A stretch of 63,565 bases of DNA, filler included, from Octopus bimaculoides (lineage: Eukaryota): NCBI RefSeq assembly GCF_001194135.2. It is 7 parts of 4 records of this genome, joined end to end, with 100 filler letters (N's around TTAATTAATTAA, not from the genome) between each part and the next. Parts side by side here need not be neighbours in the genome. Positions count along the whole stretch, not along the records: positions 39,984 to 54,010 come from NC_068981.1; positions 54,111 to 60,124 come from NC_069000.1; 5 more parts are not named here. One strand, given 5' to 3'. Under the pieces are notes generated by a model. That model did no database searches, was not told where the DNA came from, and was given only the letters and a program-made list of their open reading frames with translations. Positions 24,636-58,489 of the stretch are shown piece after piece. How positions within the stretch are numbered: the stretch's first letter is position 1; each line of letters opens with the position of its first letter. Both the position numbers and the translations under genes were made by a program.

Positions 24636-25393
24636 GTGGAGGCGCAATGGCCCATTGGTTAGGGCAGCGGACTCGCGGTCGTAGGATCGCGGTTTCGATT
24701 CCCAGACCGGGCGTTGTGGGTGTTTATTGAGCGAAAACGCCTAAAGTTCCACGAGGCTCCGGCAGGGGATGGTGGCGAACCCTGCTGTACTCTTTCACCA
24801 CAACTTTCTCTCACTCTTACTTCCTGTTTCTGTTGTGCCTGTAATTCAAAGGGTCAGCCTTGTCACACTCTGTGTCACGCTGAATCTCCTCGAGAACTAC
24901 GTTAAGGGTACACGTGTCTGTGGAGTGCTCAGCCACTTGCACGTTAATTTCACGAGCAGGCTGTTCCGTTGATCGGATCAACTGGAACCCTAGTCGTCGT
25001 AACCGANNNNNNNNNNCGCAATGGCCCATTGGTTAGGGCAGCGGACTCGCGGTCGTAGGATCGCGGTTTCGATTCCCAGACCGGGCGTTGTGGGTGTTTA
25101 TTGAGCGAAAACGCCTAAAGTTCCACGAGGCTCCGGCAGGGGATGGTGGCGAACCCTGCTGTACTCTTTCACCACAACTTTCTCTCACTCTTACTTCCTG
25201 TTTCTGTTGTGCCTGTAATTCAAAGGGTCAGCCTTGTCACACTCTGTGTCACGCTGAATCTCCTCGAGAACTACGTTAAGGGTACACGTGTCTGTGGAGT
25301 GCTCAGCCACTTGCACGTTAATTTCACGAGCAGGCTGTTCCGTTGATCGGATCAACTGGAACCCTAGTCGTCGTAACCGACGGAGTGCCAACA
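24636..25393 (+). mobile_element. SINE family A with 13-bp TSD; body written twice across a 10-N gap
   Basis: TSD acatgaggattta at 24623-24635 and 25394-25406; copies 24636-25006 and 25017-25393 are identical (probable assembly duplication). Confidence 0.93.
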
Positions 25394-26864: not shown

Positions 26865-27274
26865 GGCGCAGGAGTGGCTATGTGGTAAGTAGTTTGCCTA
26901 ACAACCACATGATTCCTGGTTCAGTCCCACTGCGTGGCAACTTGGGCAAGTGTCTTCTACTATAGCCTTGGGCCGACCAAAGCCTTGTAAATAGATTTGG
27001 TAGATGGAAACTAAAAGAAGCCTGTCGTATAAATGTATATGTATATATATATGTGTGTGCGTGTGTTTGTGTGTCTGTGTTTGTTCCCCCCCCCCCAGTA
27101 TCGCTTGACAACCGATGCTAGTAGGTTTACATCCCCGTAACTTAGCGGTTCGGTAAAAGAAACCGATAGAATACATATTAGGCTTACAAAGAATAAGTCC
27201 CGGGGTCGATTTGCTCGACTAAAGACGGTGCTCCAGCATGGCCGCAGTCAAATGACTGAGACAAGTAAAAGAGT
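26865..27274 (+). mobile_element. SINE family B, full length
   Basis: ggcgcaggagtggctatgtggtaagtag ... gactgagacaagtaaaagagt. Confidence 0.92.
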
Positions 27275-27654
27275 AATATAAATAGAATAGAATTTTTTAA
27301 ACATCGTATGGCTAGAAGGGTTCATCCGAGTAAAATAGGGATCAAAAAAGTCCATAGGCAAAAAAATGGTTGAGAAACACTGCTTTAAATAGATGCCTGT
27401 CTTATAACAAAATTAGTTAGAAATCAAAGAAAAAGTCACTATTTTGTTCTTTCTGGTGTCATTTACACATCTTTTAAATTCTAAGAAATTCCCGAAGAAG
27501 ACACTTGCTNNNNNNNNNNNNNNNNNNNNNNNNNNNNNNNNNNNNNNNNNNNNNNNNNNNNNNNNNNNNNNNNNNNNNNNNNNNNNNNNNNNNNNNNNNN
27601 NNNNNNNNNNNNNNNNNNNNTATATATATACACATACATACATACATATATATT

Positions 27655-27955
27655 CTTTTATTCTTTTACATTTGCCTGCGGCCATGCTGGAGCACCGCCC
27701 GTAGTCGGACAAATCGACCACCGGACTTATTCTTTGTAAGCTTAGTACTTATTTTATCGGACACTTTTGCCGAACCGTTAGGTGACGGGACGTAAACACA
27801 CCACCATCGGTTGTCAAGTAATCGTGGGGGGACAGACACACAAACACACACATACATATACGACGGGCTTCTTTCAGTTTCCATCTACCAAATCCACTCA
27901 CAAGGCTTTGGTCAGCCCGAGGCTGTAGTAGAAAACACTTTCCCAAGATGCCACA
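27655..27955 (-). mobile_element. SINE family B, 5'-truncated
   Basis: Homology to 19471-19885. Confidence 0.88.
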
Positions 27956-40026: not shown

Positions 40027-40052
40027 ACACACATACACACACACGCAGCGAG

Positions 40053-40282
40053 AATGAGCTAATGCTGTAGTTGACGCACATGAAGGAAAGCATACACACT
40101 AACATGGACCATAACTGTCCGAAAAATACCGACCGCGCTGGCGTAACTGATGATGGTAACGGAAACTGCCGAAACTGACGCGTCAGTCTTAAGAATATTC
40201 AGTCGATATTTTTCGGACAGTTATGGTACCTGTTAGAGTATATGTTTTTATTCATGTGCGTCAACTACAGCATTAGATCATT
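40053..40282 (+). mobile_element. Foldback element (81-bp arms) with a type I hammerhead in the loop
   Basis: Arms 40053-40133 and 40202-40282; inner 26 bp match 25/26. Confidence 0.85.
40142..40193 (+). ncRNA. Type I hammerhead ribozyme, canonical core, GUC cleavage triplet
   Basis: taa-CTGATGA-t-ggta(acggaaac)tgcc-GAAA-ctgacgcgtcag-TC^-tta; predicted cut after 40188. Confidence 0.75.
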
Positions 40283-40429
40283 TTAGCTCTTATTTCTATC
40301 AATGTAGGTGGTTTTTAACATCATAGAGACATTTAGTGACATACATATATATATATAATGAGTTTCTATGTATATGCTTGTATTTACTCTTAACACTTTT
40401 TCTTACTAGACAATACTATTAATCAAAAT

Positions 40430-41510
40430 TGCTACCCACAGCTCTTATGACAATGTTGACAACTGAACAATACCGAGTGATTTTCTTGTACGAATACAAG
40501 TTGGGTCATTCTGCCACTGAAGCTCTACGAAACATCGAGCGGGCTTTTGGTAACGATCCTGTTGACATTAGAACTGTTCAGAGATGGTTCCAAAGATTTC
40601 GTTCAGGAAACGAAAGCTTTAAAAACGAACGAAGAGGGAGATCAGAATCAGTTATTCGGCATGATGAACTGAGTGCTTGGGTTAAACGAAATCCGAGAAC
40701 AATGGACGAAAAGTCGGATCAGAGCTCTAGACATCTCCCGCAACCGTTTCTCGACACTTGAAGAAAATTGGAAAAGTCAAAAAGATGGATAGGTTTGTTC
40801 CCCGTCAACTTAATGAAATTCAAAGAAACAGAGGCCTTACAGTGTGTTCCATGTTGATTTCTCGGTTAGAAAGAGAACCATTTTTGTATCGACTCATTAC
40901 GTGTGATGAGAAATGGATACTCTTTGATAACAGCAGAACAGGATAGTGGTTAGATATAGGAGAGTCACCAAAACACTACCCAAAGCCACCATTGCACCCT
41001 AAAATGTTGATGGTTACTGTATGGTAGCCAACAAAGGGGGTTATTCATTATTCATATTTGCAACAAGGAAAAACTGTAACAGCAACATCCTATCGTCAGG
41101 AAATTGATTGTATGCATAAAAAATTAAAAAAGAAGCAACCCAGATTACTGAATAGAGATGATTCAATTTTACTTCATGATAATGCACGGCCTCACACTTC
41201 TCAAGCGACGGTCCACAAGTTGCAAAGCCTGAATTATGAAATTTTGGCACATCCTCCTTATTCTCCTGATATCTCCTACTGATTGTCACATATTTAAACG
41301 TTTCGAGCTTGCTATAAAACACTCTTAAATAAAGAGGTAATTGAAGCATTCGAACAGTTTATTTGTGTAAAAGGTGACAAATTCAGGAACGTTGGATGAA
41401 GGTCATAAATGAACAATGATCATATTTTGATTAAATAAATAAATATTCTAAAACTTAGCAATTTTCATTTTTCCCTTTACAAATGCGACATTTCATGCGA
41501 GACAACTTAA
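40430..41510 (+). mobile_element. Near full-length decayed mariner (5' TIR missing)
   Basis: YRVIFLYEYKLGHSATEA..VQRWFQRFRSG; FVPRQL; TCDEKWILFDN; LHDNARPH; HPPYSPD; 3' TIR-like tgcgacatttcatgcgagacaacttaa|ta; stops and frameshifts. Confidence 0.92.
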
Positions 41511-41559
41511 TACATATACACAATATCTTATCAACATATGGCACCTTCATGGTTTTACT

Positions 41560-42185
41560 TCACTGTGAACTCTATGTTGTTCCTAGCCGAGTTTCTGAAT
41601 CTTGTCCATTGATTGAAGGTAGTTTACCACTGTTCTTTTATTACTATCCATCTACTCCGCCCATTCTCTGGTCATTTGACGTGGATTTTCGTGAAAAAGT
41701 TGATTCAATCGCTCTTCATCGAATTCAATTGGTCGACCGGTGTGTGATCCATCCTTGAGGTCAAAATTCCCATTTTTGAAGCGCAAAAACCAACGGCAGG
41801 TGATACTTTGAGGCATTGCTCTTTCTCCATACGCAGCACAAATCTCACGAGCTGCTTCGGCGGCCTTAACACATCGATTTAATGTAAAAAGCTAATGGTG
41901 TCGACAATGCTCAGTCTTGTCCACTTGACATTCCATTTTAATGATCTGAAAATACACAAAAATCAATAAAATTAAAAAATCAAAACACACTATCTTGTAG
42001 AGCAAAACTTTCTCTTTTAAATACCATAAAACATTTTGCCAATGTGATTTACTTCAGCGTGCATTTTTAAATTAAAAAAAACGCTCATGAATTATTCCTC
42101 AACCCAGTATATAAATATATATGTATACATTCTCTACGCACAGCGCCTTTATTGGTTCCTACGTTCCACTTATTTGTGAGGACAG
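41560..42185 (-). mobile_element. Mariner 5' half (second family)
   Basis: From 41936 (minus): MECQVDKTEHCRHH*LFTLNRCVKAAEAAREICAAYGE..RWFLRFKNGNFDLKD..GRP..FDEERL; TIR-like ctgtcctcacaaataagtggaac. Confidence 0.85.
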
Positions 42186-42229
42186 AAAACAGCTTATTAT
42201 TTTGTGATTTCATGACAATAATAATTCTT

Positions 42230-42430
42230 CTAATTTTAGCACAAGGCCAGTAATTTTAGGGGGAACGGGTGGATCAATGACATTGATCCGGTACTTTATT
42301 TTATCGACCTCAGAAAGATGAAATGCAAAACTGACTTCGGTTGGTTTTGAGCGCAGGACGTAAGGAGCCAGAAAACACGCTGCTAAGCATTTTGTTCGAA
42401 ACGCTAATAATTCTGCTAGCTTGTCATCTT
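42230..42430 (-). mobile_element. SINE family C
   Basis: Homology to 46540-46740. Confidence 0.8.
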
Positions 42431-43203
42431 CCTCATAGCTAAAACAATTGTAATTTAATTGAAGAATCCTATTTAATTCATATAGAAACAAAGAAATCTA
42501 GAAAATGAAGCTAATGATTATCATAGAATTCCAATTACATTTGTATTTCTACCTAAGCTGGTCCTCTTGTTCTGTGCTGTTATATATCATACCAGTGAAG
42601 AGAATCGATGCAAATACAGTCTTTTAAGTAAGGTCGTTGCAGGGAGAGACAAAGAGAGTGAGAGAGAGAGAGAGAGGCGAGATGTTAGACAGACAATCAG
42701 ATAGACAGACAGAAAGACAGACAGACAGAGAAAGTGGAGTATTGCATTGATTCGATGTTTTTTGTGCTTTTTCTCTGCGCCATTGTATTTCTTTTTCTTC
42801 TGGAACCAAGAAAGAAGATTTAAACTGAGAAAATATTCTGTGAAGGTTTGAAATACATACATACATACATACAAACATCCATCCATCCATACATACATAC
42901 ATACATACATACATACATACATACATACATACATACATACATGCATACATACATACATACATATATATTAGTGTCTCAGAACATTTCTCAATATATTGCA
43001 TCGATAGTTTTATCATTCTTATGACAGTTTTTCATTAGATTTTTTTCCACTTTTCTTTCGTATTTCCAATATATTAAGTAATTGCTTGAGGCTTGCTTTT
43101 ATTGTTTACTGTTTGTCGCCACAGGCGGGTGACTTTCTATAAAAATAAAACTACATAGTTTAATAGAGGAGTTAATAATCTAAAGTAGAGTAGAACAGTA
43201 TAA

Positions 43204-43238
<35 letters not shown>

Positions 43239-43693
43239 NNNNNNNNNNNNNNNNNNNNNNNNNNNNNNNNNNNNNNNNNNNNNNNNNNNNNNNNNNNNNN
43301 NNNNNNNNNNNNNNNNNNNNNNNNNNNNNNNNNNNNNNNNNNNNNNNNNNNNNNNNNNNNNNNNNNNNNNNNNNNNNNNNNNNNNNNNNNNNNNNNNNNN
43401 NNNNNNNNNNNNNNNNNNNNNNNNNNNNNNNNNNNNNNNNNNNNNNNNNNNNNNNNNNNNNNNNNNNNNNNNNNNNNNNNNNNNNNNNNNNNNNNNNNNN
43501 NNNNNNNNNNNNNNNNNNNNNNNNNNNNNNNNNNNNNNNNNNNNNNNNNNNNNNNNNNNNNNNNNNNNNNNNNNNNNNNNNNNNNNNNNNNNNNNNNNNN
43601 NNNNNNNNNNNNNNNNNNNNNNNNNNNNNNNNNNNNNNNNNNNNNNNNNNNNNNNNNNNNNNNNNNNNNNNNNNNNNNNNNNNNNNNNNNNNN

Positions 43694-43749
<56 letters not shown>

Positions 43750-43799
43750 TGTGTCTGTGTCTGTCTCTGTGTCTGTCTCTGTGTGTCTCTGTGTGTATT

Positions 43800-44010
43800 C
43801 ATGTGTGTGTGTCTCTGTGTTTGTCCCCTGCCATCGTTTGGCAACCGATGTTGGTGTGTTTATGTCTCCGTAACTTAGTGGTTCGGCAAAAGAGACTGAC
43901 AGAATGAGTACTAGGCTTACAAAGAATACGTCCTAGGCTAGTAAAACCTATAAGGCTGTGCTCCAGCATGGCCGCAGTCAAATGACTGAAACAACTATAA
44001 CAGTAAAAGA
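43800..44010 (+). mobile_element. SINE family B, 3' half
   Basis: Homology to 27060-27274. Confidence 0.85.
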
Positions 44011-45142
44011 AAATAATAAAAGAATACACTAGACCTTACACTGTGTTTCGATTACCAATTCAATCTCATTAGCGTGGGTAATTAGTATTTGCTGAATCTC
44101 ACGTTAAGATGCTTAGAAAATAAGAATGAGTCCTAGGACTCACAGGACCGTTACCCGATTTCTTTCGTTTATAAGTAACCGAAATCACAACACCCCCGTT
44201 GAATGGGATGCCAGTCCATCATAGGAGTACTCATTTACACCTGAGTGAACTGGAGTAACGTGAAATGAAGTGTTTTACTCCAAAATACAACACACCCCCA
44301 GATCTGGAAATCGAAACCACGAATATGCATAGAACCTTGTGTATTATCCATGGATTTGAAATTGTATCCAATGTGATTTTCAGCTCAGTGACCACAGATA
44401 ATAGTTTACTCCTGTGGTTTTATCCGATAATTTTTAATCCCTATTATAATTTGAAACTCGATAATTAGATGATATTTCTAAATAGTCATTAATCCGATAT
44501 TATTAATAGACAGTTGTCAATCTGGTGTTGTCGCACAATTACTGAAGTCATATGTTGTCAAGTTATTCATAGGAAGTTGATTCTCCAATACATCTATATG
44601 AAAAGAGACTATAAAGCGACTGTTACAAAACCACATTACAAATCAATCTTGCCGGAGTTGGTAAAATTGTTGTTGTAAATGTGGCACTTTAATGCTTCTT
44701 GCTCAGAAAAGGAAAATGGCAAAAAGACTGTAAGTAGACTACAGTAGAAGCAACAACATTAGAAATAACAGACTTATTGTTGCTTCTATATCACCAGCAG
44801 CCACATTCCCGGACATGGTAAACAGAAGTGACACAATGGCTCCATCCCCGTTATCGTTAGAACCAATGTGACAGGGGTGGTCCCATTAAGTACAAGCCAT
44901 TCTCCTTCTACCACAAAATCTGCCAGAAATCTTCTGCCAGAAGATTTCAACTTGAATCTTGTAGAATTAAAAGTTAGTGATTAGTCTGTAGTTTTTACGA
45001 CCTTCTGTATCTATTTCTTTGCTTGAATATTGCTTTCTGATTCAGCCACTTTGGTATTTGTAATAGGCGCAATACTTTATAAAATTAGTTCGTCATATTG
45101 ATATAGTACATGTATGTGTTTTATCCAAAAATTTGTTATTTT

Positions 45143-45433
45143 TATTGTTATATTTCGGGATTGTCATTTGTTTTTCTTGACAAATAAACGCAAGCACTAT
45201 ATCTTCGTTCTTCACTATTATCATTGCTCTTATTTTATTTCACATCCATTGCCTGGAAATCTTTCGTCACACATCAGTGACTTCTTCAGCGACTCTTAAG
45301 ATGTGACGAAAGATTTTCGGATAGTGAGCATAAAATAAAATAAGAACAATAATATCGAGTGATGAACGAATATATCGTGCGTGTGTTTTTATTTGGCAAG
45401 AAAAAGAAATGTCCATCCTGAAATATAACAATA
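45143..45433 (-). mobile_element. Diverged foldback (~130-bp arms) with a hammerhead motif spanning loop and arm
   Basis: Arms 45143-45275 and 45300-45433; minus strand CTGAAGA-A-gtcac(tgatgt)gtgac-GAAA-gatt-TC at 45289-45256; stem I not recoverable. Confidence 0.7.
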
Positions 45434-45665
45434 TCTTTTTCAGCACATGATTTCATATCAGGAATCTTGTAAAACAAATTCATTAACTTTTGCTATATTT
45501 CCCATTAAGATAATTTCCAATTGTCTTTTCCCCTCAAGGATTCCATTATATTTTCCACTGTTTATATCTTCCTAGGCTAGCAGTACCATATGATTTAAAT
45601 CGTCTTTAGGACTCCGTATTAGATTTTTCCTTTAGGTGGCTTTCCTACTTTCTATATTTTTTGTA

Positions 45666-46048
45666 GTGGAGGCTCAATGGCCCAGTGGTTAGGGCAGCGG
45701 ACTCGCGGTCATAGGATCGCGGTTTTGATTCCCAGACCGGGCGTTGTGAGTGTTTATTGAGCGAAAACATCTAAAGTTCCACGAGGCTCCAGCAGGGGAT
45801 GGTGGCGAATCCTGCTGTATTCTTCCACCACAACTTTCTCTCACTCTTACTTCCTGTTTCTGTTGTGCCTGTAATTCAAAGGGTCAGCCTTGTCACACTG
45901 TGTCACGCTGAATATCCCCGAGAACTACGTTAAGGGTACACGTGTCTGTGGAGTGCTCAGCCACTTGCACGTTAATTTCACGAGCAGGCTGTTCCGTTGA
46001 TCGGATCAACTGGAACCTTCGACATCGTAAGCGATGGAGTGCCAACAA
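45666..46048 (+). mobile_element. SINE family A, full length, 11-bp TSD
   Basis: TSD atattttttgt on both sides. Confidence 0.93.
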
Positions 46049-46435
46049 CATATTTTTTGTCAAAATATTTTCTTTTACGTATTATTTCTACGTAATGTTT
46101 TTGTAAAGGTTTTGTTTTGTTTTCTCGACACATTTTAGTTTGTTTCAGTTGTTCGATTCGTATTTCAAATCACTGGATTCTCTATGCTTTTGCCTTCACT
46201 ACTTGGATAAATTTTCCTTTTATGATTATAAGATTCTGGTCTTTAATTTCAGGCTTTCTATGTAAATTTTCATTTTAGCACCTTTGCCTTTCATCTTTTC
46301 GGTGTCGATGAAATAAAGTAGCAGCTAAGTACTGGGGTCAATGATATCGACCCTTTCTCTTCAAAATTACTGGCTTTGTGTCTAAATTAGAAGCCATAAT
46401 TAGTTTGTGAACCTTTAGTGGTTAGTAAAGAAATT

Positions 46436-46523
<88 letters not shown>

Positions 46524-46539
46524 ATGTTACTCTTGTTAT

Positions 46540-46740
46540 GGCGGTGCGCCTGCAGAATCGTTAGCACATCGCATAAAATGGTTGGCTGCATTTCCTCCAG
46601 CTCTTTACGTTCTAAGTTCAAATTCCACCGAGGTCAACTTTGTTCTTCATCCTTTCGGAGTCGACAAAAAAAACCCAAAATAGATACTAGGGTCAGTTAA
46701 ATCGATTTACCCTCACCCTCTAAAATTTAAGATATTATGC
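46540..46740 (+). mobile_element. SINE family C, near full length
   Basis: ggcggtgcgcctgcagaatcgttagcacatcg..gttcaaattccaccgaggtcaactttg. Confidence 0.8.
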
Positions 46741-46989
46741 CAAAAGCTGGTCTTTATTTGTGATAGTAGTAGTAGTAGTTCACTCCTTTTTTGCTGCCAT
46801 CATATCTGTTATGCTGCAGGATACGCTGTGTTACAACTATATTGCTTTATTCCGCTTTTGTGTTGTATTCTTTGCAGTGTGTGTTTCGTTGTATTACTTC
46901 ATATTCGCATTTCTATGTTAATGCCTTCATGTACAGAAATTATTGGATTGTTCTTTAAAATGTCTGGTTGTTCGCTTAATTTATACTAA

Positions 46990-47205
46990 TCATTTGTGAC
47001 CAAATGTTGGGATTGATTTTTCGTCTGATTTCATATGTCGATCCCCACTTACAATTCGGTAGAATAAAGAGCGTTTATAACCTGTAAGTATTCGATTCAA
47101 GCCTTTTAAACTCCTAACGAGTTTGTAATTGTTATTTTCCTTTTGGTTTAGCGGTACATGCTGAGATTCTGTCTCGTGATGTGAATCCGTTCGGTTAAGT
47201 AGCAT
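46990..47205 (-). mobile_element. Mariner central fragment
   Basis: HVPLN..LFYRIVSGD resembles WVPHxL..RIVTGDE. Confidence 0.55.
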
Positions 47206-47346
47206 TGCTGAATTGTTTGCGTGTTTATTTTACAATTCTAAATTTTAGGGTAATCATGCTGGTGCAAAATGTTTATAAAACTTTAGTTAATATCTTATTA
47301 CAATTGAAACAACATTCTCTGTCAGTAGCCGCTATCTTTTCTTTTC

Positions 47347-47380
<34 letters not shown>

Positions 47381-47807
47381 CTTTTCTTTTCTTACTCAGT
47401 AGCTTAGAGAGTGTCATAAATGAATGTGGAACAGACAAGCAGGCGATAAAATTAACATTAAAATGAGCAATAAAGCAGAACCTTTAATTATAAGGACAAT
47501 GACACTAACAATCTTATGAAAAGTCATTTCAGCTATTTACATTTTGGAGAAATGCAATTTTCATTACGAACACGTGATGTATTTCAAACTACTCTTTTTT
47601 ATTGACATAGCTTTCTTCGAGGCAGCTATTTCCGTTTCTTTTACTAACATATGTTTCCTCTTTCACAAATTCTGTTGTTTTGCTGTTATCAATCTGTTGT
47701 TTTGGTTTTTATGTTAAATTGCTTTCATTCTGTGTTTTGGCTTTTGAATTTCTTCTTGAGATTTGAAAGCCACGTATGTTCACTCAGACAATTGCATTAT
47801 TGTAAGT

Positions 47808-47821
47808 CACATTATTATTAC

Positions 47822-47899
<78 letters not shown>

Positions 47900-48006
47900 T
47901 ACTACTACTACTACTACTATTATTATTATTATTATTATTACTACTACTACTACTACTATTATTATTATTATTATTATTATTATTATCATCATCATCATCA
48001 TCATCA
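47808..48006. repeat. Compound (TAT)n(TAC)n(CAT)n microsatellite
   Basis: Direct. Confidence 0.95.
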
Positions 48007-48204
48007 ATTTTCAATTCTGCTTCCATTGCTTGCTGAGTGTCTTCCTGACAACTAGGTCAGAGAAACGTACTGTATACGCTTGTAGGCCATTAAAATAAAC
48101 ACACCAGATTGTTCATTTACAAAGTTATATGATAGAGGAAAAGGAAAAAATAAAAAATAAAAAAGTAAACAAAGAAAATAAAGGGAAAAAGGAAGGAAAA
48201 TTCA

Positions 48205-48790
48205 CAGCGACAATGCTCTTCTCAGTACGTGTAACGTACTAGTTAAGAGAATCTTTTGCACTTCTTGCATAGCTGGTATGCCAGGGATCATCCTTAAATA
48301 ATTGTCAGTTCCTTTTTTAATAATTCCAAGTGCTCTATTATTTTTATCTCAGGTATTGTTGGAACTCTTGGATTCTTGTTTGTGTAGCGGGCTTGCTGCC
48401 TGCAGCCTTCAGTACCACACTATTTCTGTTCTTTTCATCTATCTAATCTTTCCTGATATTTCTGTCCGTGCCAAGGAGGCAAACCTACTGGGCACTCTAT
48501 TCCGTTTTCCTTTGTATCCTTCTTGGTGCTTTCTGGTACTGTCCCCATATATCTAACAATAATTGGCACTATCTTCACCTTCATCATTTTGCATAACCGA
48601 GCTATTTCGCACTTAAAAGGGTTGTATTTATCTATTTTTTCGCCTTTTTCTAGACTGCTCGTGGGTCAAAGGGGCACACAACATCAACTATATAGCACAT
48701 GTGGTGCATCTTGTCGACCACCACGAGGTCCGATTTGGGATCTTTATAGCTTTCGTCACTGTTTACAGTTTTGTACCTGTTGTTTTCAAA
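48205..48790 (-). mobile_element. Two abutting 3' ends of RLE-endonuclease non-LTR retrotransposons
   Basis: KSDLVVVDKMHHMCYIVDVVCPFDPR and GTVPE..CLLGTDRNIRK; second element ..ALGIIKKGTDNYLRMIPGIPAMQEVQKILLTSTLHVLRRALSL*. Confidence 0.75.
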
Positions 48791-49680
48791 TTTGGTATAT
48801 GGATTAAATTTTGTATACTAATTAGGAAAATAAAATTCAGTTTCCCTATAAATCCATAATTAAAAAGTTATTAGCCTTTAAAATTTTCAAAATTTGGGTA
48901 TTTTAGCCAATCAGAAGCGAGTATTTTACATATCACCGTGGCGAAAGCTCTGTTTCCATAGTAACCAAAGATACTGCGCATGCGCACAAGGAGGAGAAGG
49001 AGATACGAGTAAATTAATCTCCTACAATGATACTCTTGTGTTTTTCTCCGTCACAACATATGAATGAGAAAGGAAGGGGTGATAGAAAACTGATAGTAGG
49101 AGCGTTTCAACTCTGTGTGAGTATATGTGTGTGTATGTAAAAGGGGGTATGTGAATGTTTGTGTGTGTGTGTGCGTGCTCATGCAATGGAAATGAGATGG
49201 TAAATATTCAACGCTGAAAAGAAAAATCAAAGAGCGTTTCAACTCTGTGTGAGTATATGTGTGTATGTGTGTGTATGTGACAGCACGGGGCCAGCTTGTT
49301 TATTTTATAAAATCCTAGAGTGCATTGAAAACTTTCGTTCTTGAATAACTAATAAATGTCTGTTTTAAATAATGTCTTGACGGTTATTTCTAGTAACTCC
49401 CGTTGGTTTTTTCGTAGCTTTTAAATATTTAATTTGCTCGCGAATGTTTTAATGTTAAATTCATTCGAGTTTATTTTAATGCTTTGACTGTTATTTCTAG
49501 CAATGTTTTGACATGCCGATGCACCCCACCCCCAATGAGGGAAGAGGCAACGAACGCGCTGTTTTCTAATTGGCTGAAAATTCTGAAAATTATCATAAAT
49601 TAATAACAAATTTGGATTCAGCGTCAAAAATTACATCTATATGATACATTAAAAAATTTTTTTTAAGATAATTGTAAGCA
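48790..49680. mobile_element. Possible non-autonomous DNA transposon with opposed CCAAT-containing subterminal blocks
   Basis: aaattttcaaaatt..ttagccaatcagaagcg (~48880-48920) versus cgctgttttctaattggctgaaaattctgaaaatt (~49557-49592); termini and TSD not resolved. Confidence 0.35.
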
Positions 49681-49737
49681 GTGACGAAAACCACAAAGAT
49701 CCCCGGTCTGTTATGCTCTAGCACCTGACCTGTTTGG

Positions 49738-49799
<62 letters not shown>

Positions 49800-49820
49800 C
49801 ATTATTATTATCATTATTAT

Positions 49821-50080
49821 TATAGATAATATTAAGACTGCTACAACTCCTCTGGAAGGAATATGTAAATAAAAAAGAAGAGTGCCATAATAAAATTTGC
49901 TGAACGATATTTCGGTATTCCTTCCATATTCCTTCCAGAGGAGTCATAGTAGTCCTAATATTATCTATAAAAAAAAATGAAGTAGACTGAAATATCGAAT
50001 TTTTGAACCCGTTGAAGGTATGCGAGATACCGAAATATCGTTCAGCAAATTTAATTATGACACTCTTCTTTTTTTTATTT
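49821..50080 (+). mobile_element. Double inverted-repeat structure with a degenerate type I hammerhead
   Basis: IR-A 49821-49865/49925-49969; IR-B 49866-49918/50027-50079; tgaac-CCGTTGA-a-ggtat(gcgag)atacc-GAAA-ta-TC-gttca at 50004-50044. Confidence 0.72.
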
Positions 50081-50085
50081 TATTA

Positions 50086-50156
<71 letters not shown>

Positions 50157-50418
50157 GTTATTATTATGACGATGATGAGAATGATGATGACGACGGTAGT
50201 AATAACAATAGTAATAGTGCTTTATTAACCACTAGGTATTTACAAAATTGTCGAGGACGATATTGGACGGTATAGGACGATAGAATGTTGGGGTAGGTAA
50301 AAGTGTGTAATCAGGAAATAACCGAAAAAACAAACAAAAGTGTCAAGTAAGAAATAATTCCTCCAAACTGGGGAGGCCTCCGATGGCTGCTCATGAAACT
50401 TCACAAAACCACTGTCAC

Positions 50419-50648
50419 CTGACCATCTATTAGCAAATTTGCTGGGACAGCATCTTCACTGGTACTTGTAAAGGTTGATGCGGGCTCGGTCAAAGAGGAA
50501 TCCAAGGTGTGTTTTAATCCAATATCTATACTATAATTTATAGCTTTATCCACTTCGAGTTCCACCGTTATCATACATTCATGCTTCTTTAAACAATTAG
50601 GATCAACATCACATATAGGCATCAAATAAAATAGCAAAATTTTTATCA
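50419..50648 (-). CDS. Putative coding exon of an unidentified secreted or membrane protein
   Basis: 77 open codons in unique sequence ending CAG|gtgaca; ..CDVDPNCLKKHECMITVELEVDKAINYSIDIGLKHTLDSSLTEPASTFTSTSEDAVPANLLIDGQ; acceptor position ambiguous. Confidence 0.38.
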
Positions 50649-50876
50649 CTAGACTTATGCGACAACATAATTAATCAATGTAAAAATTCAAGCAAAAAAA
50701 CTTTGCATTTACGTAAATAAACCATGTAGTCATTCTTAACATATATTACCCGTTGAATTTCCTCATTATCTTCTCACGAACATTTTTTTAATGAATCAAG
50801 TTTATATTATAATGGAACACTTTCAAAGAGTTTGTTACAAACAATATTAAATACAACAAAAAGCACATTTACTTAC

Positions 50877-50939
50877 CGAACGAAAAGGAAACCGAAAAAT
50901 ATAATCATCATAACGCACTTTTCAATCTTCAGTTTCCAT
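50877..50939 (-). CDS. Putative exon with signal-peptide-like start (MMIIFFGFLFV)
   Basis: aacttttcag|A..TCG|gtaagt consensus splice sites; ATG at 50911; phase 2 end is in frame with the next exon only via the taag acceptor at ~50654. Confidence 0.4.
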
Positions 50940-51885
50940 CTGAAAAGTTAAAAACTGTTTTTAAACTCCAAGATAAAGCTTTTACAAATCACGACAAATA
51001 TTACTGATTACACAGCAGAATCACGGTTAACCTCTCTTATTCAACCGCTCACAGTTTTACTGAAACAATTTCCTTTTAAATGCAATCGAACTCAAAAACA
51101 TTCACCATAACAGTACAAATTATGTTAACTTCATGTTTCCGTGCAAAAGATTGGTTTAGATACGAATGTCTCTAAACAAAGATTTTACCAACATAAATTT
51201 CTTTAATCACCAAAAATTAAAAGGTTAGCAGCTCATAAAATATGGCTGCTCAAAGTCTCTATCATAAATTTTAACACTTCGTAGAAGAGTCTATTAAGAG
51301 TTAAGACATATAAGCAAAATAAAAAACGCCATGACAACTTCGCACATTAGCAAAAAAAGAGACACTTTTCTCCAAAGAACAAGTATTGAGCAGAAATTCA
51401 GAACTCATCTCCTCTTGTAGACATTTTAAATATGTGACATTTTAAATACATAGACTTCTCGCACGTGTAAATTCTTATAGTTGAAAATAATTGGTTTAAT
51501 CTTTTGTAGCGCAAAAGACTGACGTTTAATCACATTATATTATTTTTGTTTATATGCTTGTCTCTATAAACAAATATAACATATAGGTACTAACAGTCAG
51601 GTATTTCCTGTTTATCAGAAATATTAGTACAATATGGAAGATATTTACTTCTTGGTTGCAAAGACTGACAGTATTTACTGATCTCACGTTGTTTCCTCCC
51701 TTTTGTTTGTTACCAATATAGCTACCCATTACTGTTCCAAACTCCTCAGTAACAGCTACCTTTGCTATCACCTCCCACACCCAAACTGAGTTACCCCTAT
51801 GCTAAAACCAATTTTGAGATATCAGTTTTTAGCGACAAAATTTCGAAACAGCCACTATTAATATATTGTCTCGTCTGTGTGTGTG

Positions 51886-51962
<77 letters not shown>

Positions 51963-52391
51963 CGAAGAGCATCCGACGATTATAGAAAGCTTTCAGAACC
52001 AGAGGGTCAGGGTCTAAAGACTTCTCGCTGGAAACGAAAGAGAAATCGGCAATCCATTATCTACGGGTTTTAAATCTTTTGTACAGTCATCGGATGTATT
52101 TCATATAATAAATGTTCTATTCTATATTCAAAAATATTGAGCCCTTCTTTGAATGAATTATTAATACCTGTATTTAAAAAAACTTATCACATACACATAT
52201 GCACACATACACACACATATATACATGCCTGCATACATTCATATAAATATATAGCTACAAACACACATATAAATGTTAATTTTTGTTATTTTAGAGGAAT
52301 TTTGCAAATAAAATCAGGAGGTGCAGAAGTGGCTGTGAGGTTAGTAGCTTGCTTACCAATGACATGGTTCCGAGAGATAGAGAAGACTATT

Positions 52392-52765
52392 TAATGTAGC
52401 TTGAGTGTGTTTCGGTTTTCGTAAGGCTTGGATATCGATTGTCTTGGCCAGTTCTATTCCATTGTCAACTAATAATGCTGGTTAGTATCTTTTGAGACGA
52501 ATTGCCTTTAGTTCTTGCAGTCTTTTATTTCGCGTTCTATAATTTGAGACAATTGTACAGGTTCTTCTTGCTAGATTGAAGGGTATGTTTGTCTTCGTGT
52601 GCTTTGGGTGATTGGAGGTGGTTTGTAGTGGATATCAGTTTCAATGTTGGAGCCTTTTTTTATAATAAGAATGTCTAGAAATGGAAGTTGATCTTGACTA
52701 TATTCCATTGTAAATTGGATATAGTTGTTGACACTGTTGATTAAATTTTTGAATTCATGAGGCAG
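52392..52765 (-). mobile_element. Penelope-like retroelement RT C-terminal fragment
   Basis: IQFTMEYSQDQLPFLDILIIK..GSNIETDIHYKP../SNHPKHTKTNIPFNLARRTCTIVS..LQELK: PLE signature FT.E..LPFLD..T..Y.KP..S.HP..K..IP..LARR. Confidence 0.88.
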
Positions 52766-52809
52766 TCATCCAAGTAGCCATCCATATATATATGTATGTA
52801 TGTATATGT

Positions 52810-53015
52810 TTGTGTGTCTGTGTTTGTCCCCCCAACATCACTTAACAACCGATGCTGGTGTGTTTATGTCCTCGTAGCTCAGCGATTCTGCAAAAGAAAC
52901 CGATAGAATAAGAACTAGGCTTACAAAGAATAAGTCCTGGGGTCGATTTGATCGACTAAAGGCGGTGCTCCAGCATGGCCACAGCCAAATGACTGAAACA
53001 AATAAAAGAATAACA
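52810..53015 (+). mobile_element. SINE family B, 3' half
   Basis: Homology to 27060-27274. Confidence 0.9.
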
Positions 53016-53234
53016 GAATATTTACTGAAGTAGGTGTCCAATATTAAAAATTAGCGAGACCTGTGGATATATCACGGAATTAATAGTAAACCTATTGGGT
53101 TATTCCTGAAACCTTTATCCAAAATGCCTGCAAGCGTAATCTGTGTTGTGTCTGTATCAAAAGATAGTCGCTCATCTGCTATTCATTGAAAAGTGCAGGA
53201 AATTGGAATACGATTATTATTTAATGCCTTATAT

Positions 53235-53267
<33 letters not shown>

Positions 53268-54110
53268 TATACTTTATGCACAATTTTATAGATTTAATGC
53301 ACAGCACTCATAAAATAAATATTCACTCTTATTTTCCTATTTTTCCATAAAGAGAAAAAATTACATTTTAAAATTTACATGGTCACAATTTCATATCTAG
53401 AAAACAAAGATTTCATAATAAAAATATTATTTTATATGTAAAATACAGGGATCACAATTTCACAGGAGTTAAAATTTGAGGCAACTTGGCATACTCTGAA
53501 AACCACATCGTTGATAACTTATAATTTTAAGGCGATGGGCCAGAACCAATATGCATTTCAATTTGCATACATCTTTCAATCCAATACATCTTTACAGACT
53601 ATGTTCTTCGTATAAGTTCTCCCTCTTCTTTTCTCTTCTTTGTCAGTGTTGATAACTTAAACTCTCACATCAGATTATTTGCGAGCCCTTGAGAATACAA
53701 CATGGTCGTATTACGTTCCTCTAACCACATGTCCTCTCCCCCCACTCTCTCTCTCTCGCGCGCGCTTTCTGCTTCACTCTTCACTTTATCTTCTTTTTCT
53801 CTTTCCTTTTTCTTTCTCTCTTTCTTTCCCTTCAACTAATCGCGTGAAAGCGTTACCGACGGACTAAGTAACGCAATGACAAGCAGAATTATTTGTAAAA
53901 TTAAGTTTTGTCTAGCAAATCTCGGAAAACAGCTGTGGAATAAGCCCTCTGACGAAGTCTGAAGTCCCAGCCACACACACACACACACACACAGACACAC
54001 ACACACACACNNNNNNNNNNNNNNNNNNNNNNNNNNNNNNNNNNNNNNNNNNNNTTAATTAATTAANNNNNNNNNNNNNNNNNNNNNNNNNNNNNNNNNN
54101 NNNNNNNNNN

Positions 54111-54143
<33 letters not shown>

Positions 54144-54179
54144 CATACATACATACATACATACATACATACATACACC

Positions 54180-54394
54180 TTATTTGTGTATTAAGGCTAG
54201 CATCGGTTTCTTGTTAAGAAAAATATCTTAATATCTTAACAATTTTTCCAGCCGATCACTTGGAAGAATGGTGTTCGTCTCTATTTTGGAACATGGACGA
54301 ACACAATTTTGCCATGTGATCGACATGAAAAATTCTTAAGGTGCTAAAATATTTTCTTAACATGAAATCAATTGTAGCTTTAATACACAAATAA
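54180..54394. repeat. Diverged foldback (~100-bp arms, 16-nt loop) abutting a (TACA)n tract
   Basis: tatttgtgtattaaggctag..tgttcgtc / gacgaacac..tagctttaatacacaaata. Confidence 0.8.
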
Positions 54395-54464
54395 AAATCT
54401 TTATCCGCCAATACGGTGTTGAGCACGCATTCTCATTGTTCGACATTTACGTATATATATATAT

Positions 54465-54570
54465 AAAATAAGCAACAAAGATATCCAGAGGTAATGCAGT
54501 ACGATCGTTTCACGCAACCTCATGAAACGATCGTACTGCATTACCTCTGGATATCCTTGTTGCTTATTTT
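54465..54570. repeat. Near-perfect hairpin (48-bp arms, 47/48) made of the 3' half of a hammerhead plus tail
   Basis: Each arm reads GAAA-cgatcg-TA-ctgcattacctctggatatc..; 10-nt loop cgcaacctca; left arm abuts (TA)n. Confidence 0.85.
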
Positions 54571-55192
54571 ATTCTAATCACATTATTTTGAAATTGTATG
54601 GATAATACCATACTAAATTCTTGTGCCTCAACTTAAGTACCATATTCATCTGAATCTAAATTCTTTGTTGACTTATATATATATATATATATTATATACA
54701 TATTATGAACATATATACGTACACACATTTTTGCACATATACACATATATAAATACGTTTGTGTATGTATTCCTGTATGCCTAGACTTATATGCTTATAC
54801 ATGTAAACGTACATACATTTGACCATTATCTGTCTGTAGGCGGAAAGAACAACGACAACACCACACCAACAGGAACAACAATAACATCCACAATAATAAT
54901 AGTAACAACAACAACAACATCAATGTATCAAAGTGTTTGATTAAAATCTAATGTATTGGCATTTATATAGGAAATTAAAGCACATTATTCGTCGAACGTA
55001 AAACAACAACAACAACACTAGGAACAACAATGATTAATAACGATTCTTGATCGCCCCACTGTAAATTAGCTTGGTAATTATATATGTAATTAAACAAGGA
55101 AACAGAGCCAGAAATCGTACGAACTAATGGAATAACGTCCAATTAGTTATATTGAAAATTTATGTTATTATGCTGTTGTTATTGCTGTTGAT

Positions 55193-55230
<38 letters not shown>

Positions 55231-55667
55231 CGTTGTTTCTCTAACAAAGTTTGATCATTATTTATATAATGACGCACTTTTGTGTAGTTCTCTCCCTTCC
55301 TTTCTTTCTTTCTTTCTTTCTTTCTTTTTGCTTTTCTCCTTTCTCTCTCACTCATTCTTTCTCTCTCTCACATGAACTTTTGCAAAGCTACACTCCCCAC
55401 CTTACACACACGCACGCACACATGTACATATGTGTGAGTATATGTATGTTTGTGTGTGTGTGAGTATGTATATATGTATGTCTGTATGTATATATGTGCA
55501 TGCATGTGTGTGTATATAATATATATACACATATATATGTACATGCATATACATACATATATACATAATATACATACATGCACACAGACATACACAAACA
55601 AACATATATTTATATATCTATGTGCGCGCATATATATATATATGTATATATATAAGTATATATATAT

Positions 55668-55964
55668 AGTGTAGTATATTGCCACTTAAGTGTGGCTGAC
55701 CCCTAGGGGTGGATGTTACTAAGGTTTGCCAGATTTGTCTCTCTCACCAAGGTCATCAGCTGTCGAACGCCGACGAAGGGAAATAACCCTGAAATCCGGA
55801 TACGTTCGTGCTGCTGGTCGAGGTGAGAGGGATAACTCCCTTGGCAAACAGGACACAGTCGTGTGTCGATAAGCCAGCTGGAGGAGATGTCCTCCTGGGG
55901 CTAAAAGCAACAGTAACATCCACCCCTAGGGGTCAGCCACACTTAAGTGGCAATATACTACACT
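55668..55964 (+). mobile_element. 297-bp element with perfect 53-bp terminal inverted repeats and a central type I hammerhead
   Basis: TIR 55668-55720/55912-55964; abuts (TA)n on the left; no TSD seen. Confidence 0.9.
55764..55808 (+). ncRNA. Type I hammerhead ribozyme, U4C variant core
   Basis: cgaacg-CCGACGA-aggg(aaataa)ccct-GAAA-tccgga-TA^-cgttcg; all three stems Watson-Crick paired; predicted cut after 55802. Confidence 0.78.
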
Positions 55965-56006
55965 TTATCGTGCAGTTACTGTTAATACTTCATATAGAGA
56001 ATTAAC

Positions 56007-56040
<34 letters not shown>

Positions 56041-56227
56041 CGTGCATTTATATATATATANNNNNNNNNNNNNNNNNNNNNNNNNNNNNNNNNNNNNNNN
56101 NNNNNNNNNNNNNNNNNNNNNNNNNNNNNNNNNNNNNNNNNNNNNNNNNNNNNNNNNNNNNNNNNNNNNNNNNNNNNNNNNNNNNNNNNNNNNNNNNNNN
56201 NNNNNNNNNNNNTAAGTATATATATAT

Positions 56228-56524
56228 AGTGTAGTATATTGCCACTTAAGTGTGGCTGACCCCTAGGGGTGGATGTTACTAAGGTTTGCCAGATTTGTCT
56301 CTCTCACCAAGGTCATCAGCTGTCGAACGCCGACGAAGGGAAATAACCCTGAAATCCGGATACGTTCGTGCTGCTGGTCGAGGTGAGAGGGATAACTCCC
56401 TTGGCAAACAGGACACAGTCGTGTGTCGATAAGCCAGCTGGAGGAGATGTCCTCCTGGGGCTAAAAGCAACAGTAACATCCACCCCTAGGGGTCAGCCAC
56501 ACTTAAGTGGCAATATACTACACT
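56228..56524 (+). mobile_element. Identical second copy of the TIR-hammerhead element
   Basis: Offset +560, identical including flanks, across an N gap; artefact or true tandem unresolved. Confidence 0.7.
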
Positions 56525-56566
56525 TTATCGTGCAGTTACTGTTAATACTTCATATAGAGAATTAAC

Positions 56567-56600
<34 letters not shown>

Positions 56601-56608
56601 CGTGCATT

Positions 56609-56641
<33 letters not shown>

Positions 56642-57754: not shown

Positions 57755-58115
57755 TGTATATTTGTATGTATCTGTATATGTGTGTATGTAAGTGCCATTA
57801 CCATTCCTAATATCCCAGCGATACAAATTAGAGTACCTTTTACATTAATCATTCCTTGAACATAATGACAACTGAATCCCTCGGCTCTTTGCATTGATTT
57901 TCTTGTTGCTTCTTTTTCACAATATATTCACGCTTCACATTGGCTAATAAACTGATTAAAAACGAGCCAATGAGGAGCCTTCTAGAGGGTCGTTCGGCAT
58001 TCTAGACATAACAGCCGTCAAACCGCCCTCAAAATCACCTTTTTACGTTTTAAAAATGTGTAAAAACACATTTGATAAAGTATGCGTAGAAACAATATAT
58101 TAAATATACGCCCTC

Positions 58116-58199
58116 AAGATCTTCCCGCCTAGGGACGCAACTACTGTTTTCCTTCTCTAGATCTTCCGGCCTAGGGACACAACTACTGTTTTCCTTCTC
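58116..58199 (-). repeat. 2x42-bp tandem duplication inside a possible exon (EKENSSCVPRPEDL x2)
   Basis: Units 58158-58199 and 58116-58157, frame-preserving; acceptor ttttgtttcttgtag at 58250; ATG at 58223. Confidence 0.6.
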
Positions 58200-58489
58200 T
58201 TCTCCATCTTCGTCGGTACTCATCTTGAATATCGTCTGCTGTGGTCCTCCTACAAGAAACAAAATATAAAAACTGAAGCTCCCCAGCGATCAATAACAAA
58301 ATAGACAAAATCGCAAGTCTTCATTATTGTGATCGAATTTTGGAGCTCAAACTTTATTACCGCCAACACCACTGAGCGCTACGTCATTTGTGTGACGTAG
58401 AAAATTTTCAAACAACATTGCACAAGATTTGGTCCCACGGCCATCCGTCCGCTAAAAAACTCATGCTGAGACACTAAAACAGAACTATG

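Follow-up and report, generated by a model that had tools for sequence, protein, structure and literature searches.

Insertions of Penelope-like elements (PLEs) have been described as carrying an inverted 5′-truncated copy and, at one end, a tail of 30–40 bp, with a bias toward microsatellites (PMC8557442), and an inverted pseudo-long terminal repeat (pLTR) with a tail has been reported in PLEs as well (PMC3846280); how these elements form tandem or inverted insertions and tails is named as an open question in the former account. The minimal hammerhead ribozymes described in PMC4209133 have a base between positions 9 and 10.1 and a palindromic stem III, and they also occur in opposite-strand pairs 100–700 bp apart. 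With the green anole element Poseidon_Ac, cutting and extension of both strands of an AT-rich target have been shown in vitro, with two internal RNA starts whose spacing equals the tail (PMC11167929). Use of PLE enzymes by retrozymes has been argued on grounds of co-occurrence and phylogeny; insertion footprints were not part of the argument (bioRxiv 10.64898/2026.07.22.740005). Here we describe five foldbacks, E1 to E5, in a 63,565-nt stretch of the Octopus bimaculoides genome (assembly GCF_001194135.2; parts joined end to end with filler, hereafter the window) and argue, with a probability of roughly 0.7, that they are head-to-head, cut-down copies built afresh at each insertion by a PLE enzyme that copied one RNA from both cut strands.

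The five places had been picked out in a sequence-only reading of the window, and foldbacks were found at all of them with an inverted-repeat aligner run on the whole window after masking of short tandem repeats, a dedicated tool adopted because self-BLAST, with its overlapping hits, missed several foldbacks. Fifteen rows reached a score of at least 50, among them E1 to E5, a sixth foldback (54180–54394), a tRNA-like foldback (3643–3834), an inverted pair of repeats resembling short interspersed nuclear elements (SINE-like) and a duplicate of E5.

E1, 40047–40339, plus strand: inverted arm 40047–40133, long arm 40134–40339, one-sided extension 40289–40339; (CA)n on the left and a TA-rich run on the right, the right end being taken as the point where that run begins.
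E2, 45143–45433, minus strand: long arm from 45301 to 45143, inverted arm 45302–45433, with the 3′ half of the ribozyme in it; no microsatellite.
E3, 49821–50080, plus strand: inverted arm 49821–49923 (segment order Z-X), long arm 49921–50080 (X-Y-Z); inside (TAT)n.
E4, 54463–54660, plus strand: inverted arm 54463–54522, long arm 54521 to about 54660; (TA)n on both sides.
E5, 55668–56008, plus strand: inverted arm 55668–55720 (53 nt), long arm 55720–56008; (TA)n on both sides.
E5 duplicate, 56213–56620, plus strand: exact copy of 55653–56060, which spans E5 and its flanks, on the other side of an N gap.

Taken in ribozyme orientation, each of the five elements consists of two 5′-truncated copies of one end, with the truncated ends joined and the 3′ ends facing outward. 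The arms match at 76/87 positions in E1, 105/134 in E2, 49/56 in E3 (plus a second pair), 49/50 in E4 and 53/53 in E5, an identity range of 78% to 100%, and the long arms show no similarity to one another at E ≤ 0.05. One arm extends beyond the other in four of the five, by 51 nt in E1, 44 nt in E5 (55965–56008), about 47 nt in E3, where the extension sits on the inverted arm, unlike in E1 and E5, and about 90 nt in E4, where ends of public family contigs place the family end at 54658–54666; in E2 an extension is not definable. All four extensions are longer than the published PLE tail. Whole insertions measure 200–340 bp, the foldbacks cover 2,594 of the 58,342 non-N bases (4.4%), and no convincing start of an open reading frame (ORF) was found on the long arms of E1 to E5. 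The PLE-type architecture that had been proposed is supported, with an inverted 5′-truncated copy in 5/5 elements, as is the recurrence of one layout in five unrelated sequences; the elements are longer than had been noted, by the extension of one arm, and E3 resolves into two overlapping inverted pairs. The description of a hammerhead followed by a tail, with an inverted copy of that tail upstream, holds in general but not to the letter, the inverted arm of E1 and E5 not reaching the ribozyme, and the placement of ribozymes at the tips of the foldbacks fails across the E5 family. The E5 duplicate is probably an assembly artefact and was excluded from independent counts. Other exact or near-exact duplicates flanking N gaps (24643–25006 with 25017–25380, and 5647–5838 with 6505–6696) are probably artefacts of the same kind.

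Taking CUGANGA and GAAA…UH as the core, with stems I, II and III in type I order, whole type I hammerhead topology is present in four of the five elements, two with intact cores and two with core changes.

E1 hammerhead, 40147–40188, plus strand: intact core with an extra base after A9, 4-bp stem II, 3-bp stem I, 14-nt palindromic stem III; predicted cut after 40188.
E2 hammerhead, 45256–45289, minus strand: intact core with an extra base after A9, 5-bp stem II, minimal self-complementary stem III; stem I decayed to only 1 bp in this copy.
E3 hammerhead, 50009–50039, plus strand: two core changes, U4C and A6U.
E5 hammerhead, 55770–55802, plus strand (z = −5.1): U4C core, 4-bp stem II, 8-nt palindromic stem III, predicted cut after 55802; stem I of 6 bp, lengthened by a long imperfect helix.

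E4 holds the 3′ half only, GAAA followed by a 6-nt palindrome and UA, at 54524–54535 and on both arms; this motif is weak evidence alone because it occurs 14 times in the window, five of them inside E1 to E5. About 30 nt upstream, loose ends of the E4 family carry ATGA together with a candidate stem. A core or its 3′ half is thus found in each element, as had been claimed, and the palindromic stem III that had been expected is seen as self-complementarity in 5/5, with predicted dimer energies of −25.1 (E1), −10.0 (E4), −10.9 (E5) and +1.6 kcal/mol (E3). With a type I descriptor, tuned after the elements had been seen and compared with 30 shuffles of the window, intact cores gave two matches, both in foldbacks (0.07 per shuffle), and allowing up to two core changes with a stem I of at least 3 bp gave five, four of them in foldbacks, one being the E5 duplicate (0.2 per shuffle); within the window, hammerhead-like motifs are more frequent than in shuffles and concentrated in foldbacks. 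Both retrozyme-like elements, E5 (55770–55776) and E3 (50009–50015), have C at core position 4. In contigs of the E5 family, letters other than C at this position all fall below the 5% listing level, and the C looks like a family trait, not decay.

Several further motif matches were rejected as lying within the chance range: 6923–6957 (in (ATG)n), 33758, 23744, 24352, 62068 and 29786, together with 58372–58407, where an 8-bp hairpin precedes GAAA and the core upstream has two mismatches, with a 42-bp tandem repeat nearby (58113–58200). In a metagenome scan with the E5 ribozyme pattern, six loci were rejected as chance; all are GC-rich and without hammerhead context, their similarity being confined to the 28-nt pattern.

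Family-level evidence comes from public contigs from sequencing runs, aligned to E5 and to the region of E4 and the sixth foldback, which was delimited as follows.

Sixth, older foldback, 54180–54440, plus strand: arms 54180–54279 and 54296–54394 (81/100), one-sided extension; abuts (ATAC)n.

Contigs matching E5 numbered 9,940, 7,759, 429 and 14 in four runs. Of the 11 E5 joint rows, nine connect the two arms, inverted and long, no two at the same place; each is represented by one contig at a depth of 14–78. The long arm of these siblings begins upstream of the ribozyme in two cases, inside it in two and downstream of it in five. Summed depth is 75,000–158,000 at the joint of the E5 copy described here, compared with about 2 million in the interior (depth is not copy number), and E5 family contigs extend upstream of 55720 with other sequence. 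The sixth foldback also belongs to a high-copy family, to which 13 of the 15 joint rows listed belong, all different. Because the inner joints differ among sibling insertions, in E5 as in the sixth foldback, the foldback appears to be rebuilt at each insertion, and it is likely that this is done by PLE-type enzymes at each landing and that the foldbacks do not move as hairpin units. The nine E5 joints (the opposite-strand row and the circular row were excluded) share 1, 4, 4, 1, 2, 2, 3, 1 and 0 letters, 18 in total, significantly more than the total of about 6 expected at 0.69 per random joint (p = 6 × 10−4, resampling).

These joints bear directly on what the sequence-only reading had inferred, namely that the foldbacks are short non-autonomous units and self-cleaving RNA hairpins, a model in which the foldback itself would be transcribed, self-cleave and move as a hairpin. 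A whole core is indeed present in four of the five, and E5 sequence occurs in runs guessed to be RNA. When folds were predicted by partition function, for the ribozyme alone and for the whole foldback, stems I and II of E3 and E5 were predicted at 0.97 or above with the inverted arm present or absent (at least 0.98 inside the full foldback). However, the probability of stem II in E2 drops from 0.81 for the ribozyme alone to 0.00 inside the foldback, where the inverted arm is predicted to sequester the ribozyme, and in E1 stems I and II are predicted at 0.03 or less, the monomer fold being disfavoured because, in the model, the core pairs with the stem III palindrome. In addition, the E4 copy is without a 5′ core, one ribozyme cannot release a unit, all nine E5 siblings have different inner joints, five of them starting downstream of the ribozyme, and depth at this particular joint is low. 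Mobile hairpin units are therefore very unlikely, and this part of the earlier interpretation is not supported. Holding at most one whole ribozyme, the stubs would be dead ends. For minimal hammerheads, published cleavage is poor or requires protein (PMC4209133; PMC11167929); stem III would, by design, require a partner RNA, and the work of the ribozyme, dimeric self-cleavage of multimeric transcripts, would belong to the parent repeat, not to the stub.

The adjacency to microsatellites that had been noted for four of the five elements is confirmed: E1, E3 and E5 lie within 2 nt of a tract identified by Tandem Repeats Finder (TRF), and E4 begins beside a short (TA)n on the left and, with its extension included, ends on the right 1 nt short of a tract. 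As background in this microsatellite-rich window, 2.7% of positions fall no more than 5 nt from a tract. A 19-nt candidate target duplication that includes the (TAT)n interruption flanks E3, the sole element for which a target duplication was found; short target duplications at the arm ends were found in none of E1 to E5. Single-arm insertions beside such tracts might, conceivably, have gained an inverted duplicate later by replication template switching: microsatellites are unstable, the arms range widely in identity, and replication template switches also use microhomology. Yet neither arm runs into host flank, the inverted arm of E3 holds a junction missing from its long arm, and the strongest short foldbacks among the 15 rows are these elements, whereas the SINE-like repeats that abound beside microsatellites in the window are without mirror stubs. 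We regard this origin as highly improbable.

What was copied is best seen in E5. One 339-nt contig (run X17) runs from 55822 to 56008, continues through 54 other letters and then through 55720–55817, giving a self-closing unit of 343 nt of which the E5 long arm makes up 289 nt. The permuted contig fits a tandem array and a circle equally. On this sequence evidence, E5 is a sub-unit-length piece of a retrozyme, of the non-LTR (long terminal repeat) kind as defined by sequence. In E3, the arms, Z-X and X-Y-Z, end 47 nt apart in the permuted unit, an order that would imply a head-to-tail unit of about 157 nt or, alternatively, a template jump; E3 is probably a retrozyme with a unit of this size, seen in the two arms of one insertion. 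The templates of E1, E2 and E4 could be PLE ends or retrozymes. The earlier description of the units as non-autonomous accordingly applies to E5, and probably to E3.

The proposed insertion route would begin with a GIY-YIG endonuclease cutting both strands of a simple-repeat target. Reverse transcription would then be primed from each cut 3′ end, beginning at either of two sites that lie downstream of the hammerhead and whose spacing would set the length of the tail; both cDNAs would stop early and anneal via 0–4 shared bases, and repair would leave the inverted pair. The templates would be retrozyme RNAs for E5, and probably E3, or PLE or retrozyme ends for E1, E2 and E4. The arm ends lie about 37–206 nt downstream of the predicted ribozyme cut, varying by family, and the place of the hammerhead near the turn would follow from its distance to the arm ends, some 40–200 nt farther downstream, and not from any need of the hairpin for a ribozyme. 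In E2 (45262–45302), E3 (50025–50039) and E4 (54513–54535), the inverted arm ends on reaching the 3′ strand of stem II or slightly within it, a pattern that frequent stalling of reverse transcription at this point would produce; E5 family joints do not cluster at stem II, with four of the nine within 55761–55808.

The same PLE or retrozyme origin could also be reconciled with an inversion made by self-priming, that is, by folding back on an antisense template or on the first cDNA. For rotifer Penelope elements, palindromes at inverted junctions have been proposed as the source of self-priming (PMC3846280), short palindromes are present at the E2 and E4 joints, and fold-back priming, which needs few complementary bases, could yield microhomology. 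Nevertheless, in E3 it is the inverted arm that carries the extra length, and it contains the segment coming next in the unit after the end of the long arm, which a fold-back copy of the long arm could not supply, and both strands were cut and extended in the Poseidon_Ac experiments (PMC11167929), so that self-priming appears unlikely. Copying of one RNA from both cut strands is preferred. A bolder form of that preferred reading, tentative and on balance rather doubtful, would have PLE enzymes paste in cephalopod retrozymes by priming twice on a single small RNA, possibly a circle, the retrozymes including a minimal 157-nt unit with little beyond a hammerhead and two sites where reverse transcription starts; the thousands of microhomology-joined stubs would then be a direct genomic footprint both of the dependence of retrozymes on PLEs and of the PLE insertion mechanism.

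Inverted arms and TA-rich flanks are equally features of miniature inverted-repeat transposable elements (MITEs), which are annotated in octopus (PMC13282606), and DNA-transposon MITEs with chance hammerhead-like motifs would account for the layout at first sight. The one-sided extensions, asymmetric ends, variable inner joints and permuted 343-nt unit do not fit such elements, nor does the lack of short target duplications at the arm ends, and the motif counts are far above those of the shuffles; an origin from DNA transposons is extremely unlikely, as the sequence-only reading had also held.

A number of observations weigh against copying by a PLE enzyme from both cut strands, or limit how far it can be pressed. 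E2 lies at least 675 nt from any microsatellite and is without a defined tail. The 5′ core of E4 was not seen, and the loose ends of its family end before the full core position. A covariance search with Rfam returned no hammerhead family at the gathering threshold or at E ≤ 10, its output being otherwise microRNA-like hairpin noise and one tRNA-like match. Visible E5 joints are limited to inverted arms of 53 nt or less with short sides of 24–28 letters, a caution for the joint counts, and the contigs on E5 and on E4 and the sixth foldback list no place where many molecules end. The joints of the sixth foldback all list 0 shared letters (its copies are about 80% alike). Evidence for the 343-nt unit comes from a single contig, belonging to a run that carries the label of another organism and whose RNA nature is a guess. 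No tail is linked to a PLE ORF.

The last point concerns the reverse transcriptase (RT) of the window, a PLE fragment that had been noted before and was found again.

PLE RT fragment, 52371–52759, minus strand: frameshifted; protein search and tblastn.

Its best match is an Octopus bimaculoides protein (91% over 48 aa), and with protein P0001 it shares 91% and 77% identity over two segments; the full-length relative P0010 has an RT, a C-terminal GIY-YIG domain and a CX2-5CxxC linker, a motif proposed to drive the microsatellite bias of Neptune PLEs (PMC8557442). A Pfam search did not recognise the 64-aa RT piece. In tblastn with three PLE proteins, the fragment was the sole match listed, 1.4 kb from the nearest foldback, and no RT and GIY-YIG ORF joined to a terminal repeat was found in the window. 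The fragment, which is not linked to any of the five foldbacks, shows that the lineage has had such enzymes.

No hammerhead core was found in the sixth foldback, the tip of which is a stem followed by GAAC instead of GAAA. It may represent a ribozyme-less or variant-ribozyme PLE end, for example a Naiad remnant. Elsewhere in the window, a nested inverted pair at 26934–27954 involves two SINE-like repeat families around a gap, with arms 81–89% alike, and at 3643–3834, 54-bp inverted arms (48/54) surround a tRNA-like sequence (3702–3774, minus strand), followed by a 21-bp tandem repeat. The tRNA-like sequence scores 38 bits with Rfam and is not reported by ARAGORN; a partial inverted tRNA-like copy lies at 4074–4102.

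With about 10,000 matching contigs and measurable joints, the E5 family makes both PLE insertion and the dependence of retrozymes on PLEs testable from existing genome data, and the stubs are a usable record of how PLE enzymes would insert DNA. For annotators, such stubs can pass as MITEs or microRNA hairpins.

Among known routes to inversion, LINE-1 twin priming joins two primed cDNAs by microhomology; there, the second primer anneals upstream on one RNA and the pieces do not overlap, whereas in the foldbacks the same 3′ region is copied into both arms, from two starts lying close together. A literature search by title and abstract found no application of twin priming to PLEs. Likewise, neither head-to-head retrozyme stubs nor microhomology at PLE inverted joints were found in the search listings or in the passages of freely available main text covered. 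The supplements of PMC4209133, PMC7229834 and bioRxiv 10.64898/2026.07.22.740005 list ribozyme families and species and may include cephalopod or inverted examples. In the portions of main text covered, the word "inverted" occurs 0 times in PMC7229834 and once, in a reference title, in bioRxiv 10.64898/2026.07.22.740005, and no cephalopod appears in either. For cephalopods themselves, ribozymes go unmentioned in the passages covered of the O. vulgaris repeat paper (PMC13282606), and in those covered of the paper on the giant squid genome, 235 hammerhead loci are counted with no structure given (PMC6962438).

Metazoan non-LTR retrozymes (PMC7229834; bioRxiv 10.64898/2026.07.22.740005) resemble E5 in being non-coding type I units of about 340 nt with head-to-tail closure, and further in their very high copy number, long target duplication where visible and proposed PLE dependence. 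They have, however, been published as tandem arrays or monomers, as far as the parts covered extend, whereas the copies described here are of sub-unit length, head-to-head and provided with a tail, and the E3 unit of about 157 nt would fall below the reported retrozyme range of 170–400 nt.

The PLE minimal hammerheads of PMC4209133 share with E1, E2 and E3 the extra base after A9 and the G10.1-C11.1 pair, and with the elements in general the palindromic stem III, short stem I, dimer-type design and opposite-strand pairs. E5 differs from them in its A10.1-U11.1 pair, in lacking the extra base and in having a long stem I; position 4 is C in both E3 and E5, and stem II is 4–5 bp here compared with 7–8 bp. 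In Poseidon_Ac, the start sites lie about 85–92 nt downstream of the ribozyme cut, whereas the distance from predicted cut to arm end differs here by family (about 37–206 nt), and inverted joints and non-autonomous templates are not modelled in the portion of PMC11167929 covered.

Also close are the endonuclease-bearing PLEs (Penelope/Poseidon, Neptune and Naiad), which have the same head-to-head truncated copy, tail at one end, microsatellite bias and hammerhead in the terminal repeat. The stubs differ from them in having no ORF between or beside the arms, in their size of 200–340 bp and in their longer tails, and at least one template here is an apparently non-coding permuted unit. The insertion layout and the ribozyme type have thus been described already, and the stubs are not a new class of element; the variant of interest is that of retrozyme templates bearing the PLE footprint, the joints of which are countable.

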